From a virus (Duplodnaviria > Caudoviricetes): 64,000 nt of DNA. Both the position numbers and the translations under genes were made by a program. The notes under the pieces were generated by a model that was not told the origin of the DNA, made no database searches, and worked only from the letters and a program-made list of their open reading frames with translations. Of this stretch, positions 2,660-61,493 are shown piece by piece (the stretch's first letter is position 1; the number at the start of each line of letters is the position of its first letter). The stretch is from positions 3,958-67,957 of the IMG/VR virus record IMGVR_UViG_3300027813_000012; one strand, 5' to 3'.

Positions 2660-3442
2660 TTAAAGATAATCAAGCACTTGCTCGTGATCGACGTTATCAA
2701 TAAGTTTTTGTACAGCTTGTCTTTTTAGCTGTGATACTCTAACGTAAGATGAACTGCCTTCTATTTTTAATTGGCTAGCTATTTCTTTTGCTGAATATTT
2801 TTCACTGTTTAAACCGTAACTCAATGTCAACACTTGGTATTCCCTTTCTGTTAGATGTCTTCTCAAAAGACTATCTAAATAAGCGTTTAATAATTGAACA
2901 TTGTATGGTTCTGATTTATCTGGTATTTGATGTGTCATATTCTCATCATCATTTGGCTTGTCATCTATACTCAGAAAAATAGAATTAAAAAACATTGAAA
3001 CCATTTTTTTATCTTTACCAAAGTTCCTACGTATTTCATTTAGCTTATGTTCAGGTATTCTCATGTCACCACGATTAATATCTATTGCTCTACGTATTTG
3101 TCCTCTTATTCGTTTAGATAAAAACGATTTTATTGTTTTTTCTTGATCTTCAGATGCCTTAAGCAGTAACATATCTAACCGATCTACTGCTTTAATTAAA
3201 CCTGAACTACCTTCTTGTATTAGGTCATTTATTGTCATAACACCAGAGGCTTGTTGTGTTGTGGAGAACTTCCTAGCTATATTTTCTACCAAAGGCAGAA
3301 ACATGGTTATGGCTTGTTCTTTGTTTAGATTAGTAAATTCGTTATTTTCTGCATCATCTTTAAGATGTGCTGGAAGAGCTCTTATAGATGCGGTGATGTC
3401 TTTCTTCCACCTAACATAATTTACAACGTTATATTTCTTCAT
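2660..3442 (-). CDS. Phage-encoded RNA polymerase sigma70-family factor
   Basis: Region 2 (LPLVENIARKF, DLIQEGSSGLIKAVDR, KRIRGQIRRAI) and region 4 HTH (LTEREYQVL..KEIA..RVSQLKRQAVQKL). Confidence 0.9.
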   Translation of the reverse strand: MKKYNVVNYVRWKKDITASIRALPAHLKDDAENNEFTNLNKEQAITMFLPLVENIARKFSTTQQASGVMTINDLIQEGSSGLIKAVDRLDMLLLKASEDQEKTIKSFLSKRIRGQIRRAIDINRGDMRIPEHKLNEIRRNFGKDKKMVSMFFNSIFLSIDDKPNDDENMTHQIPDKSEPYNVQLLNAYLDSLLRRHLTEREYQVLTLSYGLNSEKYSAKEIASQLKIEGSSSYVRVSQLKRQAVQKLIDNVDHEQVLDYL

Positions 3443-5205: not shown

Positions 5206-6040
5206 AGTTACGAATAGTTTTAAACATTGGATGTCTGTAACTACCATATTGAGTACGTTCGAAATATGTAAACGTAGCTCTTTGACCTATGTAGTCATGA
5301 ATGTTGTTAAGTATATCTGCTAAGTCTTTGTAGTTGTAGCCTTTACCAGGAGGACAACCAAACTTATTACCGTCGTCATCTTGCATAAAGAATTTGCCAA
5401 GAGTACCTTCACGCTTGCCTTTACCTTCTTCATAGCCAACAATTAGAGCTTCAGTATCATGAAAGTCTTTAAACTTTTGCAAGTTATAAGAACGTTTACG
5501 TTGATATGGACCATCTAAACGCAGTATAGAGCCTTCGTAGCCATCAGCTAAATTTCTAGAATGATAAACTCTAGCATCATCCATTCTTAATACTAGGTTT
5601 GTTTGCACATATTTAACACAGTAAGAGTAAAAATCACTACAAACAAGATTATTCATACGTATACCATAACTGTCTTCAGTATTTGCGTAGTCATAACAAT
5701 GAAATTGTACTAATTCTTTTGAATCTAGCCTATCAGAGTCAGTCGGTTTTTGTTTTCTGACTAATGATATGATCTTTTCGAAATTGTCTCTTAGATCATG
5801 ATTATACAACTCACCGTCTAGTATCATGTCAGGGTTTAAGTCAAATGAAGGTTTTAAGTCTTCTAGTATATGAGCTATATTCAGCCAAGGTTTACCTGTA
5901 CGTGAATAAGCATATACGTTACCTTTGTCATCGAGTTGAATTACGCACCTAACGCCATCTAGCTTAGGTTGTATAAATACATTCTCGGACCAGTCGACAG
6001 GTTTTTTGTCTACTTTGTATGCGAGCATTGGTTTAATCAT
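5198..6040 (-). CDS. ATP-dependent DNA ligase
   Basis: QPKLDGVR (motif I), ILDGELY, GYEGSILR, LQKFKDF. Confidence 0.95.
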   Translation of the reverse strand: MIKPMLAYKVDKKPVDWSENVFIQPKLDGVRCVIQLDDKGNVYAYSRTGKPWLNIAHILEDLKPSFDLNPDMILDGELYNHDLRDNFEKIISLVRKQKPTDSDRLDSKELVQFHCYDYANTEDSYGIRMNNLVCSDFYSYCVKYVQTNLVLRMDDARVYHSRNLADGYEGSILRLDGPYQRKRSYNLQKFKDFHDTEALIVGYEEGKGKREGTLGKFFMQDDDGNKFGCPPGKGYNYKDLADILNNIHDYIGQRATFTYFERTQYGSYRHPMFKTIRNYE

Positions 6041-8031: not shown

Positions 8032-8037
8032 ATAAGT

Positions 8038-8115
8038 TACCGGTTGTCACTACGACTGGCTTTGTACAAAAGAACCTTAAGGAAGCCAAGGCGTCGATTT
8101 ACTGTTAAACCGGTA
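8038..8115 (-). ncRNA. 78-nt structured element B in RNA array
   Basis: Nested stems TACCGGTT/AACCGGTA, CGAC/GTCG, TGGCTT/AAGCCA; no ORF. Confidence 0.55.
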
Positions 8116-8120
8116 TTTAG

Positions 8121-8213
8121 TGGAAGTGGGCGGAATCGAACCGCCGTTTTGAAACATTCCTGAGTTCATAACGATCCCTCACCAGTTCAGTTTCAACTTA
8201 CCTTATCACTCCC
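8121..8213 (-). ncRNA. 93-nt tmRNA-like tRNA-like domain (Ala identity) with no mRNA-like region
   Basis: GGGAGTG/CACTTCC acceptor with G3:U70 and A73, stemless D-loop, TTGAAAC/GTTTCAA helix, 3-nt linker, GGCGG-TTCGATT-CCGCC T arm. Confidence 0.7.
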
Positions 8214-8216
8214 TTT

Positions 8217-8294
8217 TCGAGGTGCCAGTCGCGGACCGGTACTAACTAGTATTATGCTTTATCCGCGCTTTTGACCAGTATGCCGCCACCTCGA
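8217..8294 (-). ncRNA. 78-nt structured element A in RNA array
   Basis: Nested stems TCGAGGTG/CACCTCGA, CTGGTC/GACTGG, GCGGA/TCCGC, TACT/AGTA; no ORF. Confidence 0.55.
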
Positions 8295-8338
8295 TTGCTA
8301 GCTATTCAGTTATGTGTAGTGCAATACTACCTGTTAAC

Positions 8339-8509
8339 CTACTCGTCTAGCGTATTTTTATTATATAGCCTCACAGCTTCTCTAATATCTTCTATATTAT
8401 AGTCTATTAGTATTCTATATGCTTTTTTGTTTGGTGCATGAGTATGTAAAACCTCTTTATGTTCATTTTCTTCTTGCATTTCAAACCATTTTTTTACTGA
8501 ATCACTCAT
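8339..8509 (-). CDS. Hypothetical protein (56 aa)
   Basis: Manual ORF MSDSVKKWFEMQEENEH..NTLDE. Confidence 0.5.
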   Translation of the reverse strand: MSDSVKKWFEMQEENEHKEVLHTHAPNKKAYRILIDYNIEDIREAVRLYNKNTLDE

Positions 8510-8947: not shown

Positions 8948-9391
8948 TTATCGTGCTGTATTCGTATTTATTTTGTAATTCCTTAAATAAAATTCTAACA
9001 TAAATTTAAGTCTCGCCATACCACTATATATTTTAGCTCTTGATATAGTAGTGTATTTTCTAGTTATAGTCTTGTTGTTTTCTAAAAATACGTACCTTTT
9101 CTCGCGTTTGTACGTTGGGTTTAGTTGATAATTAGAATAGCAAGAATTCTGATTTCTTACATAACCTGACTCAAAACAAGCAAGTCTTAACTTGTTTACA
9201 TCATAAGCTAGAACACCATATACTTTTCTAGGTCTTCTTGAAGGTACAGGGAATTCAAATTCTCTTGTGCCATTTTTAGCTTGACGCTGTGTTGTTACTT
9301 CTTTAATGTTATGCTCGATTAGTAATGCTCTTGCAAAAGAGTCTTCTAACATTTGTTGTTCTTGTTTCCAAGTGTATTTAATTGTACTCAT
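8948..9391 (-). CDS. Hypothetical basic protein
   Basis: ORF track. Confidence 0.6.
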   Translation of the reverse strand: MSTIKYTWKQEQQMLEDSFARALLIEHNIKEVTTQRQAKNGTREFEFPVPSRRPRKVYGVLAYDVNKLRLACFESGYVRNQNSCYSNYQLNPTYKREKRYVFLENNKTITRKYTTISRAKIYSGMARLKFMLEFYLRNYKINTNTAR

Positions 9392-10787: not shown

Positions 10788-11232
10788 ATTATTATTTATT
10801 AGTTGATTTGTAAAATTCTATTCTGTTTAAGACATCTTGTCTAGTTATTTCACCATCCATTTGTTTACCAATGTAGTGAGTCATATCGATTTCTTTGCCA
10901 TTAGGGCATTTTAAAGTATATATCATATTATTATTATTTAGTTTATTAGTTTAGATTTTCCATAAAGTTTTCGTATAGACTTTCAATATACACTTTATCA
11001 TTTGATTCTTCTTTGTTTAATTCATGAAGTGATAAGAATTTATTCCATTTCTCATAATTCACAAAACATTCTTTGATTAATTCTTTCATATTAGTGGAAT
11101 TCATTGTAGATTGATAGAACTTCTCTTTGTTCTGATTTAGTTAATTGGAAGACATTTTTCTCTGGAAATAGTCTGAGCGCAATTCTTATTAGTGCGGATT
11201 GATTATACATATTATTATATTTATTTTATTAG

Positions 11233-11273
11233 TTGACATAGTGAGAATCGAACTCACATAAACCATTATGTCA
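11233..11273 (-). ncRNA. 41-nt mini tRNA-like RNA (acceptor stem + T arm only)
   Basis: TGACATA-ATGGTTTAT-GTGAG-TTCGATT-CTCAC-TATGTCA-A: perfect 7-bp and 5-bp stems, canonical T loop. Confidence 0.65.
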
Positions 11274-11279
11274 TAAGTA

Positions 11280-11369
11280 TTCAACTGTATTTAGAGTGTA
11301 GAGAATACTGAACGCACACTTATGTTCAACTTTATTTATAGTGTAGAGAACTTTTAACACACACTTTTG
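11280..11369. repeat. Imperfect 45-nt tandem duplication, each unit with an AGTGT/ACACT stem
   Basis: ttcaactgtatttagagtgtagagaa..cacacttatg versus ttcaactttatttatagtgtagagaa..cacacttttg. Confidence 0.75.
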
Positions 11370-11416
11370 TTTCACTCAGTCCAGAAATCGTGGAGTGACT
11401 CACCGCTTTAATTAGT

Positions 11417-11644
11417 TTACACTAACTCTTTACCTCTTACTACTAATGGTATATTATTAGTTGCAGTGTAAGATTTGTACTTTAACCAACATGGTAAGTT
11501 AGTTAGAGTGTCTTTCATTATAGAGAAGACTTTGTCGTGATTGTACACAATTTTGTCACCTTTTTTGTTAGTGAATTCAAACGTTACATTTTTTCCGATT
11601 AGTGATTGTCTTACGACGAATCTTTTAGTTAATTGATTACTCAT
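11417..11644 (-). CDS. Hypothetical protein, first gene of leftward unit
   Basis: ORF track; downstream of motif-1 copies 5 and 6. Confidence 0.65.
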   Translation of the reverse strand: MSNQLTKRFVVRQSLIGKNVTFEFTNKKGDKIVYNHDKVFSIMKDTLTNLPCWLKYKSYTATNNIPLVVRGKELV

Positions 11645-11698
11645 AGTTATTATATTTATTTATTAATTATTTACTTATTTGTTTATTTGTAGTTACAT

Positions 11699-11733
11699 AT
11701 ATATAATCGAAGACTGTTCGTATTTGGTATGTA
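11699..11733 (-). promoter_or_regulatory. Motif-1 copy 5
   Basis: TACATACCAAA-TACGA-ACAGTCT-TCGATTATATAT. Confidence 0.75.
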
Positions 11734-11905: not shown

Positions 11906-11970
11906 AAACGTGAAATGTTAATAGTAAAATACGAATGAGATAGTTTAGTTATACGTTCAACATCGAGTAC

Positions 11971-12004
11971 TACTGAGGGAATACGATGGGGAATCGATAA
12001 TATG
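11971..12004 (+). promoter_or_regulatory. Motif-1 copy 7, opposite orientation (faces structural arm)
   Basis: TACTGAGGGAA-TACGA-TGGGGAA-TCGATAATATG. Confidence 0.65.
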
Positions 12005-12217
12005 GGTGGGCCCGGCGAAATGGATTCAACTTCCCAAAATGGCGGTGGTGGCTAGGGGAGGGGGGCAATGCTACCTCTAATTACATCTTATGTTTTTTAA
12101 AAAAGGGTGACATTAGGTAGTAAAGATATACTAGTAAGGGGCAAGTGTCACTATATATTATAGTAAATAAATAAAATAGCATGTGATTATTCTAGTATAC
12201 AATAAGATACATAGACT

Positions 12218-12481: not shown

Positions 12482-14053
12482 ATGGAATTCAATAACCCTA
12501 GTGAGATTGTAAAAGATCTCTATTTTGGCAGCGATGCTAAACAAAAAATAATAAAAGGAGTTGAGAAGCTAGCGAGAGCAGTTAAATCAACCCTAGGAGC
12601 TTCAGGTAAGTGTGTCATCTATGAAGATGGTCTTGGGAAACCAGTGATCACAAAGGATGGGGTAACAGTAGCAGACAGTGTAGTTTTGCTAGACCCAGTG
12701 GAAAACATAGGTGCTACATTGATTAAAGAAGCATCGAAAAATACAGTGAGAGAAGCAGGTGATGGTACAACTACAGCTATCGTACTTGCTGAAGCATTAT
12801 TAAAAGAAGTCAATAACCCAGAGTATTCCAACGAGAGTATAAGAGATATAAAGAACGGAATTGAATCAGGTTATAAAAAGGTTGTGGAATACCTCTCTAA
12901 ACATTCCAAGGCAGTTGCTGGTGATCAGCTCAGTTCAGTTTCAGCTATTAGCTGTAACAACGATAAAGAACTTGGGGATATTATCGCAAAAGCTTATGAA
13001 AAAGTAGGAAAAGATGGTGTCGTCTTAATGGACGAAAGTGAAACGGATGAAACATTTACAGAGATAGTAGATGGCGTACAATTTGATAGTGGCCTAATGT
13101 CACAGCATTTTGCTACAAATAAAGATAAACAAATATGCGAACTAGAAAATCCATATGTTTTATTGGTTTCCTCACCTATACCTAATATACGTAAGATACA
13201 AAGTATATTAGAACATGTTATAAAAACCCGTAGACCTTTACTTATTATAGCTGAAGTAGAACAACAAGTAAAGTCGGCGCTTTTAATGAATAAAGTTAAG
13301 GGTAATATAAACGTTAACATTATAGATCCTCCAGGATTTGGCGGAAGTAAAGATGATACAATAGAAGATTTAGCATTTTTAACCGGTGCTAAAGTAATTA
13401 ATGAAGAGCTAGGAGACGATTTAGATCTGATCCAGCCGGATTGTTTAGGTGAAGTAGTGAAATCTGTCACAAGTAGCAGAACTACAGTCCTTACAACCGG
13501 TGTTGAAGCTGAAGATCTAAAAGAAAGAATTCTAGACGTTAAGAAGAAGATTAAGAAAGAGAAGGTTCCTTATTTTAAGAGAAGATTACAAGACAGATTA
13601 GCCATGTTATCCGGCTCTGTTGGTATAATTCACGTAGGAGCTGATTCTAAGGTTGAATTAAAGGAAAAGAAAGATAGGGTCGAAGATGCTATCTACGCAG
13701 TTAAGGCTGCTTTGCAAGAAGGTATTGTACCAGGCGGTGGAGTTGCCCTTTTAAATGCTGCTTCTTTACAAACTGCTGATAATATCGGTCAAAAGATCCT
13801 GTTTAAGGCGCTTTCGTCACCATATGAAACAATTCTAGACAATGCTGGGTTGCAAAACGTAGTATTACACGAAGGAATAGGTTATGGTATTGACGTAACC
13901 ACTGGAAAAGAGGTTGATATGATAAAAACTGGTATAATTGACCCAGTACTAGTAACAAAGACAGCGCTAAAGAATGCAGTTAGCGTCGTGTCTACTATAA
14001 TTTCTGCAGATTGTGTAATCTCTAACATAAGAATTCCACATGCAAGCAGTTAA
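12482..14053 (+). CDS. groEL: Chaperonin GroEL (phage-encoded)
   Basis: VKSTLGASG, ITKDGVTVA, AGDGTTTA, GIVPGGGVAL, GIIDPVLVTKTALKNAVSV; no GGM tail. Confidence 0.97.
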   Translation: MEFNNPSEIVKDLYFGSDAKQKIIKGVEKLARAVKSTLGASGKCVIYEDGLGKPVITKDGVTVADSVVLLDPVENIGATLIKEASKNTVREAGDGTTTAIVLAEALLKEVNNPEYSNESIRDIKNGIESGYKKVVEYLSKHSKAVAGDQLSSVSAISCNNDKELGDIIAKAYEKVGKDGVVLMDESETDETFTEIVDGVQFDSGLMSQHFATNKDKQICELENPYVLLVSSPIPNIRKIQSILEHVIKTRRPLLIIAEVEQQVKSALLMNKVKGNINVNIIDPPGFGGSKDDTIEDLAFLTGAKVINEELGDDLDLIQPDCLGEVVKSVTSSRTTVLTTGVEAEDLKERILDVKKKIKKEKVPYFKRRLQDRLAMLSGSVGIIHVGADSKVELKEKKDRVEDAIYAVKAALQEGIVPGGGVALLNAASLQTADNIGQKILFKALSSPYETILDNAGLQNVVLHEGIGYGIDVTTGKEVDMIKTGIIDPVLVTKTALKNAVSVVSTIISADCVISNIRIPHASS

Positions 14054-60686: not shown

Positions 60687-61493
60687 TTATATTCCGTTTT
60701 TAAAGTAAGGAGTTTTCCATTTTTGAGAATTTATTGGAAACCTAACTGATTTGATTATTTTTTTAATTGTTTTAGTAGGGTTGAAGTCAAACCATTCCGC
60801 TCTCTTGTTGTCCTTTAGGGATGATATTTTAAATGCTTCTAGTGATTGCTTGTCTTTATTAGAAAAATGAATACTACATAAAATCCTTGGACCTATCGCA
60901 TCAACTTTATGATACTGGTATTGCGGTATGTATAGCATATCACCTTCGTCTAACGTAAACTCTTCTAATATTGTTTCAGGTTTATCAGGTATAGACTCCT
61001 TGTATATAGTCCATTTAACTTTGCCTTTCGTATGAAACAAAAAGTTTTCTGTAGCATCACCATGAGCCGGGTAACTTTTAGATCCAGCTGAAGGAGATGC
61101 ATAAACATTCACTTGGCCTTGTTTAAAGTATCTTTCAAATTCAAAGCACATATCTACGAGATCTTTATTTTCATACTCTGCAAATGGTATAACAAAGCTT
61201 TTACCCTTGCTCCAAAGATTCGCTATTTTATTTTTACTAAGTATTTCGGTTTTATCCTTGCCACTTCTAGATTTGTCTAAACAAAATTTACCATCCTTGT
61301 CGTCGTAATCTATTACTTGTAATGACTTAACAAAGGGGTATCTATTTATATAATCACTCAAGTTGTCGAAAGTGAACAAATTTTTGAATTTATTTCTTCT
61401 AAGTATTAAGTGTTTTTTGCCCCAGTACTCTTTAAAAAATGTTTGCACTGGAACTGGATCTAATATTTCTTCTAATGTTATTTTATTTTTCAT
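60687..61493 (-). CDS. JmjC/cupin-4 2OG-Fe(II) hydroxylase (YcfD/NO66-like)
   Basis: FFKEYWGKKHLIL, VNVYASP..AHGD, LDEGDMLYIP..YHKV. Confidence 0.85.
   Translation of the reverse strand: MKNKITLEEILDPVPVQTFFKEYWGKKHLILRRNKFKNLFTFDNLSDYINRYPFVKSLQVIDYDDKDGKFCLDKSRSGKDKTEILSKNKIANLWSKGKSFVIPFAEYENKDLVDMCFEFERYFKQGQVNVYASPSAGSKSYPAHGDATENFLFHTKGKVKWTIYKESIPDKPETILEEFTLDEGDMLYIPQYQYHKVDAIGPRILCSIHFSNKDKQSLEAFKISSLKDNKRAEWFDFNPTKTIKKIIKSVRFPINSQKWKTPYFKNGI

Follow-up and report, generated by a model that had tools for sequence, protein, structure and literature searches.

A conserved mimic of the upper tRNA half lies between genes of related marine phages and may act as a transcript-processing signal

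Introduction

What is the role of a small RNA fold that imitates only the upper half of a tRNA and lies between two phage genes? The question is raised by a locus in a 64,000-nucleotide stretch of viral DNA, referred to below as the window, which corresponds to bases 3958-67957 of an IMG/VR record of 67,957 bases (IMGVR_UViG_3300027813_000012) rated complete by CheckV. The RNA fold of 44 bases copies the upper tRNA half only and is found between phage early genes. It had been proposed, from the sequence of the window, to be a processing signal for an early transcript or a decoy RNA. Minihelices consisting of an acceptor stem and a T arm are model substrates of RNase P, RNase Z, the CCA-adding enzyme, and EF-Tu, two coaxial helices and a T loop being sufficient in vitro.

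Rightward genes start at 12.2 kb and include a GroEL-type chaperonin gene (12482-14053, plus strand; product about 41% identical to its best matches in phage records) and structural genes. Leftward from 11.6 kb, the minus strand carries many small ORFs, a mini-tmRNA-like gene, genes for tRNA-Met and tRNA-Gly, and genes encoding a DNA ligase, a DenV-like glycosylase, a sigma-70-family factor (2660-3442, minus strand), an ERF recombinase, and a primase. A JmjC/cupin-domain protein is encoded at positions 60687-61493 of the minus strand. No close cultured phage relative was found by megablast of positions 10800-11700 or by tblastn of a structural protein against 50,697 phage records. Among 30 ORFs scanned with Pfam, a set that covers part of the many small ORFs, none encoded a tRNA-processing enzyme, SmpB, or an RNA ligase.

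Results

Fold of the element

The minihelix is encoded by the minus strand, as are the neighbouring genes, and extends from position 11273 to position 11234, followed by an unpaired A (11233) and CUA. The 5' strand of the acceptor-like stem, UGACAUA (11273-11267), pairs perfectly with the 3' strand, UAUGUCA (11240-11234), an assignment based on the sequence, RNAfold, and covariation. The stem leads into a linker of 9 nucleotides, AUGGUUUAU (11266-11258), which contains UGG, with GG at 11264-11263. The T arm (11257-11241) comprises the stem GUGAG/CUCAC (11257-11253 with 11245-11241) and the loop UUCGAUU (11252-11246), which is closed by a G-C pair. The unpaired A is discriminator-like and precedes the trailer CUA (11232-11230). 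The minihelix thereby has the components of a tRNA top half, namely an acceptor with an unpaired discriminator and a 7-nucleotide UUCRANN T loop closed by the equivalent of G53-C61. The structure predicted by RNAfold was identical, with the same two helices (-10.6 kcal/mol, 68% of the ensemble, z = -2.1), in agreement with the 7-bp acceptor-like stem, T arm, 9-nucleotide TGG-containing linker, and A-CTA 3' context that the original prediction had placed at 11233-11273. The prediction had mentioned neither the minus strand nor two features described below, a conserved pseudoknot upstream and the lack of conservation of the seventh acceptor pair.

Only 9 nucleotides separate the acceptor and T stems, leaving no room for a D or an anticodon stem. 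The absence of both stems had been predicted, and two programs agreed: ARAGORN made no call at the minihelix, which has no cloverleaf, and the Rfam tRNA model (RF00005) aligned to the acceptor, the T arm, and the discriminator with deletion of the D and anticodon arms (20.9 bits for a gathering score of 29). The Rfam tmRNA model (RF00023) gave no match to the minihelix at E values up to 10. Over the whole window, ARAGORN and Rfam at the gathering score reported tRNA-Gly and tRNA-Met only, and a permissive Rfam search added only the sub-threshold tRNA match and chance matches. A strict pattern requiring seven of seven acceptor pairs, five of five T-stem pairs, a TTCRANN loop, and a linker shorter than 20 nucleotides was present once in the window, for 0.08 sites expected (200 shuffles). 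Over 834 kb of related loci, the same pattern retrieved members of the family only.

Conservation and covariation

Eighty relatives were fetched through GroEL (66-79% identical). A Python scan followed by a search with a covariance model (R1), derived from alignment A2, identified the minihelix in 21 of the 80 relatives, at 22 sites that are all on the strand opposite GroEL. A further 61 stretches, nearly all from contigs 40-70 kb in length, were obtained by scanning IMG/VR with a 25-base pattern for the linker and T arm; a loose pattern returned 701 mostly spurious matches and was dropped. In total, the covariance model recognized 79 copies, 53 of them distinct, in 60-70-kb contigs of related uncultured marine phages. 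Complete relatives harbor one strong copy, and a few harbor two on the same strand. Alignments A1 and A2 were built by MAFFT without structural information, and the acceptor stem was part of no query pattern. Alignment A2 took the place of A1, which included the flanks and was out of register at the 3' strand.

About 19 different acceptor stems were found, each with an exact complement; their 5' strands include UGACAU, AGACAU, UGAAGU, AGUCAC, UGUAGU, GGUAAU, AAAGCA, GAGAUA, and UCUCUU. The compensatory changes that the original prediction had suggested looking for were thus present, 11 of the 12 pairs changing on both sides among the 53 distinct sequences, in alignments that were fitted to the model and in which the second collection had a common T arm, loop, and UGGUU linker fixed by the design of the pattern. 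In the same sequences, 92.8% of the cells were paired, as compared with at most 55% when the partner was slid by one to three columns. None of 500 shuffles reached the observed values for percentage of paired cells, cells changed on both sides, pair types, or covariation score, and a smaller set agreed; the number of pairs changed on both sides was reached by one shuffle in 500. The T stem was paired in 98% of the cells, and the closing G-C pair was present in 52 of the 53 sequences. The perfect 7-bp stem that had been predicted is therefore correct for the window but not for the family, in which the conserved acceptor-like stem has 6 bp; the seventh pair of the window (A11267-U11240) is found in only 15 of the 53 sequences. 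Because the changes in the acceptor stem are compensatory, two small ORFs that overlap the minihelix (11189-11284 and 11271-11375) were not accepted as genes.

These data bear on the possibility that the minihelix is what remains of a tRNA gene in decay, or that it acts at the level of DNA, for example as an origin, an attachment site, or a promoter hairpin. A remnant could account for the weak Rfam tRNA match (20.9 bits) and for the presence, in an unrelated contig (L085), of the same linker and T arm within a longer, tRNA-sized element. However, 53 distinct copies maintain their pairing by compensatory changes across phages whose GroEL proteins are only 66-79% identical. A full tRNA beside the gene that precedes the minihelix, which would be expected if the minihelix were the product of a deletion, was detected by ARAGORN in none of the 40 GroEL-clade loci examined, and a scan of all loci found none at this place. 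The strand specificity of both the G-U pairs and the T-loop orientation is difficult to reconcile with a DNA-level signal. Covariation therefore largely refutes both versions of this explanation, which we regard as highly improbable. The family is a real and strongly conserved mimic of the tRNA top half and elbow, unannotated by Rfam and by tRNA finders, and the proposal that the minihelix is a functional acceptor and T-arm mimic, as opposed to a chance hairpin or a remnant, holds.

Several related elements depart from the common form. Five loci (L013, L017, L027, L051, and L068) have a GGUAG/CUACC stem and no cloverleaf, with a linker of 20-27 nucleotides in four of them and a shorter one in L068. 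Contig L085, which is 104 kb long and carries about 20 tRNA genes, contains two non-canonical tRNA-like genes (8980-9065 and 9158-9225, plus strand), neither of which was called by ARAGORN. One of them, located within a tRNA cluster, combines the linker and T arm of the minihelix with a separation of 49 nucleotides between the acceptor strand and the T stem, and the other appears to be devoid of an anticodon arm. The L085 element that shares this linker and T arm hints at the evolutionary source of the minihelix. One 70.7-kb record (G001, the record of locus L006) has the same minihelix at 5729-5776 and 69420-69467, 63.7 kb apart, probably reflecting a terminal redundancy of about 7 kb or the assembly of a concatemer.

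tRNA-specific positions and the 3' trailer

The near-invariant positions of the family are the T loop UUCGAUU, its closing G-C pair, the GG of the linker, and an unpaired nucleotide followed by C-(U/A)-A. The linker is unpaired and contains 9-13 nucleotides. Its GG dinucleotide did not vary in alignments A2 and A3, where neither the linker nor the T arm and its loop had been fixed beforehand, nor in A4, in which the search pattern imposed GG on the 61 new loci. The tRNA elbow is formed by docking of two D-loop nucleotides, G18 and G19, on the T loop. By analogy, the linker GG (11264-11263) can be read as the counterpart of G18-G19, and a linker reduced to UGG would be expected for an elbow mimic, as in the tRNA-like domain (TLD) of tmRNA.

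The nucleotides following the acceptor stem were compared with those of tRNA genes. In the 51 complete distinct rows of the family, the unpaired nucleotide (A, rarely U) is followed by C (51/51), U or A (51/51), and A (49/51). Among the 35 distinct tRNA genes identified by ARAGORN in the fetched loci, which come from the window and from loci L034, L085, and L088-L136, with 20 of the 35 from the unrelated contig L085, the discriminator is followed by C in all 35, by U or A in 34, and then by A in 30. None of these 35 phage tRNA genes encodes CCA. We estimated from base frequencies that C-W-A occurs by chance at about 4% of sites. Within the window, the discriminator and trailer are A-CUA for the mini-tmRNA-like gene, C-CUA for tRNA-Met, and U-CAA for tRNA-Gly. 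The 3' context shared with the mini-tmRNA, which had been noted previously, was thus recovered, the tmRNA-like match (8213-8118) ending in A-CUA. Since the minihelix has its trailer in common with the mini-tmRNA and with tRNA genes, whose products have to pass through the tRNA maturation machinery, a shared 3' maturation is indicated, and C-(U/A)-A looks like a lineage-wide 3' processing signature.

The mini-tmRNA-like gene (8118-8213, minus strand, 96 nucleotides) scored 37.1 bits with the Rfam tmRNA model, whose gathering score is 47. Its features are G3-U70, an A discriminator, the trailer CUA, a P2-like stem, and a hairpin, and no obvious tag reading frame was seen in it. The RNA may be larger because both flanks (8032-8117 and 8214-8340) are G+C-rich and full of nested inverted repeats.

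The similarity of the minihelix to tmRNA suggests a function in trans, in which the released minihelix would act early as a decoy titrating SmpB, EF-Tu, the CCA-adding enzyme, or a defence enzyme that attacks acceptor ends. The architecture of the minihelix, with an acceptor, a D-loop analogue containing GG without a D stem, a T arm, and an A discriminator, is that of the tmRNA TLD. The near-invariance of the linker and T arm, together with an acceptor stem that is free to vary, fits a partner that reads the elbow side. Two reports (PMC4131195, PMC11915505; Mao et al., 2009, as cited there) state that tmRNA is strongly inhibited by an RNA consisting of little more than the TLD, whether or not this RNA can be charged, perhaps through titration of SmpB, and that the genome of mycobacteriophage DS6A contains a gene of this type. 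Nonetheless, the minihelix has neither a P2 helix nor G3-U70, and the phage already possesses the latter pair in its separate mini-tmRNA-like gene. Position 3-70 of the family is U-A in 28 sequences, A-U in 22, including the window, and G-C in 2, but never the G-U pair of alanine identity. The absence of G3-U70, of P2, and of a match to the tmRNA model indicates that the minihelix is not a tmRNA, although a decoy action resembling that of the TLD might remain.

A conserved pseudoknot upstream

An H-type pseudoknot of about 45 nucleotides ends 0-6 nucleotides before the minihelix in 37 of 71 distinct contexts; stem 1 occurs in 18 variants and stem 2 in 15. The window contains two copies in tandem on the minus strand. 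In the copy adjacent to the minihelix (11276-11320), stem 1 is formed by 11320-11315 and 11300-11295, stem 2 by 11309-11303 and 11282-11276, and an A-rich loop 3 extends from 11294 to 11283; two nucleotides (11275-11274) separate this pseudoknot from the minihelix. In the other copy (11324-11365), the stem 1 hairpin (11365-11360 with 11345-11340) is predicted and stem 2 has only 4 bp.

Six pairs of stem 2 are common to the sequences, and 96.6% of their cells were paired in an alignment made by MAFFT without structural information (A5), versus at most 56% after sliding. Three of these pairs change on both sides, and none of 500 shuffles reached the observed percentage of paired cells or the covariation score. 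The 45 G-U cells of stem 2 would be mismatches on the other strand, and the fold is therefore that of RNA from the gene strand. Stem 1 was aligned inconsistently by MAFFT, and its support consists of complementary variants and per-sequence shuffles (0-6 of 100 reaching the score). Nested folding of the pseudoknot region of the window was no more stable than that of shuffled sequences (z of +0.3 and +0.7), so that the evidence for the pseudoknot, which we consider moderately supported, is comparative. Second copies of the minihelix located elsewhere in the operon have no pseudoknot, and the window has a pseudoknot copy without a minihelix. Since each occurs without the other, the two structures are separable modules.

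Two other interpretations of the pseudoknot region were rejected. A pistol-ribozyme-like structure would involve pairing of the trailer with loop 3, which holds for the window (AGU with ACU) and fails in the relatives. A preQ1-type riboswitch found no support in Rfam, and searches of positions 11200-11430 with the models for pistol, twister, preQ1, and other ribozymes and riboswitch pseudoknots gave no match at E values up to 10.

Position of the minihelix in the operon

The first ORF of the leftward operon, gene 1 (11417-11644, minus strand), encodes a conserved protein of 75 residues, and the minihelix starts 143 nucleotides past its stop codon. Sixteen residues, including one Cys and an H-D pair, are invariant among relatives of the protein, which matched no Pfam or PHROG family. 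Its AlphaFold model is confident (pLDDT of 89.6); Foldseek found no PDB match at E values up to 0.001, and the best VIA-align Z score was 2.7. The next ORF (11091-11210, minus strand, 39 residues) starts with an ATG located 19 nucleotides past the CUA trailer and is not conserved among relatives.

Homologues of gene 1 were present in 36 sequences (35 loci and the window). The minihelix follows gene 1 in 22 of these (21 loci and the window), and a long-linker variant or a related tRNA-like element does so in L013, L017, L027, L029, and L051. In L056 and L079, the slot is occupied by a strong hairpin followed by a U tract, resembling an intrinsic terminator, and in L061 and L063 the next promoter-like motif follows at once. 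The tRNA-like element of L027 lies within an 11-bp stem that is itself followed by a U tract. The presence of a hairpin and U tract in the same slot (L056, L079, and L027) indicates that the gene-1 message acquires its 3' end in this slot.

The slot shared with intrinsic terminators, as well as the 11-bp stem and U tract of L027, could also mean that the minihelix is a structural hairpin that replaces a terminator or blocks exonucleases at the 3' end without any involvement of tRNA enzymes. However, no U tract follows the minihelix of the window, whose tail is ACUAAUAAAA, no terminator-like site was found between 9000 and 12500, and a stability of -10.6 kcal/mol is weak for a barrier. Such a function would also leave the invariant T loop, the GG, and the N-C-(U/A)-A trailer unexplained: a plain hairpin does not need UUCGAUU, its closing G-C pair, the GG, or the trailer, and the near-invariance of these elements counts for a reading by tRNA enzymes. 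A purely structural role is in our opinion quite improbable. The same slot affects the assessment of the decoy. A position directly past the first gene of the operon would suit an RNA that acts early, but the minihelix is located apart from the tRNA and tmRNA cluster and is bound to a slot of the mRNA in which terminators also occur. Taking these arguments together with those derived from tmRNA, we consider a decoy function unlikely as an explanation of the minihelix, although it is compatible with processing.

The minihelix is intergenic in all 73 contexts analyzed and co-oriented with the genes, at a median distance of 76 nucleotides from the preceding stop codon and 23 nucleotides from the next ATG. 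Proximity to this ATG, which lies past an A/U-rich spacer, might be taken to suggest a cis-acting element of the 5' untranslated region of the next gene, such as a translation enhancer, a standby site, or a 5' stabiliser. Three observations make this very unlikely: the downstream gene differs between relatives, the minihelix tracks gene 1 and not gene 2, and a promoter-like motif intervenes before the next gene in 6 contexts (at 6-12 nucleotides in five of them and 113 nucleotides in one).

This promoter-like motif, ATACGA-N9-CGATWAT, occurs 8 times in the window, for 0.09 copies expected, and is also abundant in relatives. It does not resemble a standard pair of -35 and -10 boxes. On the minus strand, seven copies between 6059 and 11895 precede groups of small ORFs, and the eighth copy is on the plus strand (11981-12001). 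The nearest copy upstream from gene 1 (11703-11723, minus strand) is its candidate promoter. The motif is probably the early promoter or an operator of this phage group. Reading its copies as candidate early promoters makes it plausible that the minihelix lies, as predicted, inside the early region. The A+T-rich divergent region between the two operons contains a G+C-rich island of about 100 nucleotides with runs of C and G (11970-12080), which overlaps the plus-strand copy of the motif and may be another structured RNA or a regulatory site.

The stretch is contained in 20 public sequencing runs from 14 studies, six of these runs being metatranscriptomes. Assembled metatranscriptome contigs from four runs cover gene 1 and much of the operon, bearing in mind that contigs cannot show RNA ends, strand, or absence. 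With the same reservation as to ends and absence, nothing covered 11097-11253 and one contig of 151 nucleotides ended at 11272.

Discussion

A tentative model for processing of the early transcript

We propose, with a confidence slightly short of even, that the minihelix mimics the tRNA elbow in order to recruit RNase P, 3' trimming activity, and the CCA-adding enzyme, thereby punctuating the early transcript. From the structure of the minihelix, its conservation, its placement, and its tRNA-like trailer, we infer each of the enzymatic steps that follow. The minihelix would be made within the leftward polycistronic transcript and would be treated as a pre-tRNA by the tRNA end-processing enzymes of the host. 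RNase P would cut at its 5' edge, approximately between 11274 and 11273. The 3' side would be trimmed at or just past the unpaired A (11233), and the end would be completed by the CCA-adding enzyme, as would be the case for the tRNAs of the phage. The cut would part the gene-1 mRNA from the message downstream. The 3' end newly created on the former, located in the pseudoknot or 2 nucleotides after it, would be shielded from 3' exonucleases, and the latter would keep a short A/U-rich leader. A tRNA-like RNA of about 41-44 nucleotides would be released. As far as the original prediction of a processing signal is concerned, the placement, the C-(U/A)-A trailer, and the occurrence of terminators in the same slot all fit. 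Location at a gene boundary on the sense strand is characteristic of t-elements and mascRNA and was observed in all 73 contexts.

Two features of the family complicate this model. Many members stack 6 and 5 bp, giving 11 bp versus the 12 bp of tRNA, and the nucleotide at position -1 is mostly A or C. Bacterial RNase P prefers U at this position. The efficiency and the site of cleavage are therefore uncertain; in addition, a pseudoknot so near the cut site could hinder RNase P. The strict conservation of the T stem and linker goes beyond what a mere cut site would obviously require, hinting at a partner that reads the mature RNA. The processing model can be extended to make the pseudoknot and minihelix the phage counterpart of the MALAT1-mascRNA module: a single RNase P cut would generate both a pseudoknot-locked, exonuclease-resistant 3' end and a CCA-tailed elbow mimic of about 44 nucleotides that would act in trans as a decoy, for instance against SmpB and trans-translation or against a defence system targeting tRNA acceptor ends. 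We judge this combined scheme distinctly unlikely.

If host tRNA enzymes do cut at the minihelix, tRNA punctuation would shape gene expression in a widespread group of marine phages by means of a signal of about 40 nucleotides. To our knowledge, this principle has so far been known from mitochondria and a few eukaryotic long non-coding RNAs. Such cutting would explain how mRNAs of differing stability arise from operons without terminators, and RNA engineering would gain from the minihelix a small processing tag of natural origin. Were the released RNA a decoy instead, it would represent a new kind of phage small RNA directed against the translation or defence machinery of the host. For annotators, the family would represent a new RNA class, absent from Rfam and unseen by ARAGORN. 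The shared C-(U/A)-A trailer provides a clue to the maturation of 3' ends in the host.

Comparison with known systems

Plant mitochondrial t-elements are tRNA-like structures found beside mRNA ends, where they are regarded as cis-acting signals for RNase P and/or RNase Z (Forner et al., 2007, PMC1920247). The phage minihelix likewise combines a tRNA-like structure with a boundary between messages of a polycistronic transcript and a proposed role as a cis-signal. The t-elements are organellar and mostly adopt fuller tRNA-like folds, and their transcript ends have been mapped, whereas the phage minihelix is limited to the top half. The D-loop-like GG linker and, in many cases, the upstream pseudoknot also set the minihelix apart from t-elements.

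In the MALAT1 and MEN-beta transcripts, according to two articles (PMC8457004, PMC11693755), RNase P generates the 3' end of the upstream RNA and frees a tRNA-like RNA, mascRNA or menRNA, that receives CCA. The phage locus shares with MALAT1 a tRNA-like fold directly downstream of a protecting structure, protection by the pseudoknot being presumed. The mascRNA is a cloverleaf derived from a eukaryotic nuclear long non-coding RNA, and the protector is a triple helix with an A-rich tract; the phage has an H-type pseudoknot.

The TLD-only tmRNA of DS6A, the only published parallel for a decoy of this kind, is an RNA reduced, like the minihelix, to an acceptor, a D-loop analogue without a D stem, and a T arm. 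In contrast to the DS6A RNA, the minihelix has no G3-U70, no P2 helix, and no match to the Rfam tmRNA model, and it is located between protein genes, outside the tRNA cluster. The mini-tmRNA-like gene of the window also resembles the TLD-only tmRNA reported for DS6A, which is devoid of a coding sequence.

The C4 RNA of phages P1 and P7 is a natural phage substrate of RNase P. Model minihelices and C4-type substrates are laboratory constructs or hairpins without an elbow, whereas the present family is natural, conserved, and equipped with a GG linker. The tRNA-like structures at the 3' ends of TYMV and TMV RNAs have upstream pseudoknots; their acceptor arm is itself pseudoknotted and aminoacylated, and they end the genome. 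These viral RNAs and the phage locus thus share a pseudoknot immediately 5' to a tRNA mimic that ends a message, but the acceptor of the phage is an ordinary stem and the element lies inside an operon. On the basis of these comparisons, we class the minihelix with tRNA-like processing elements and TLD-like RNAs.
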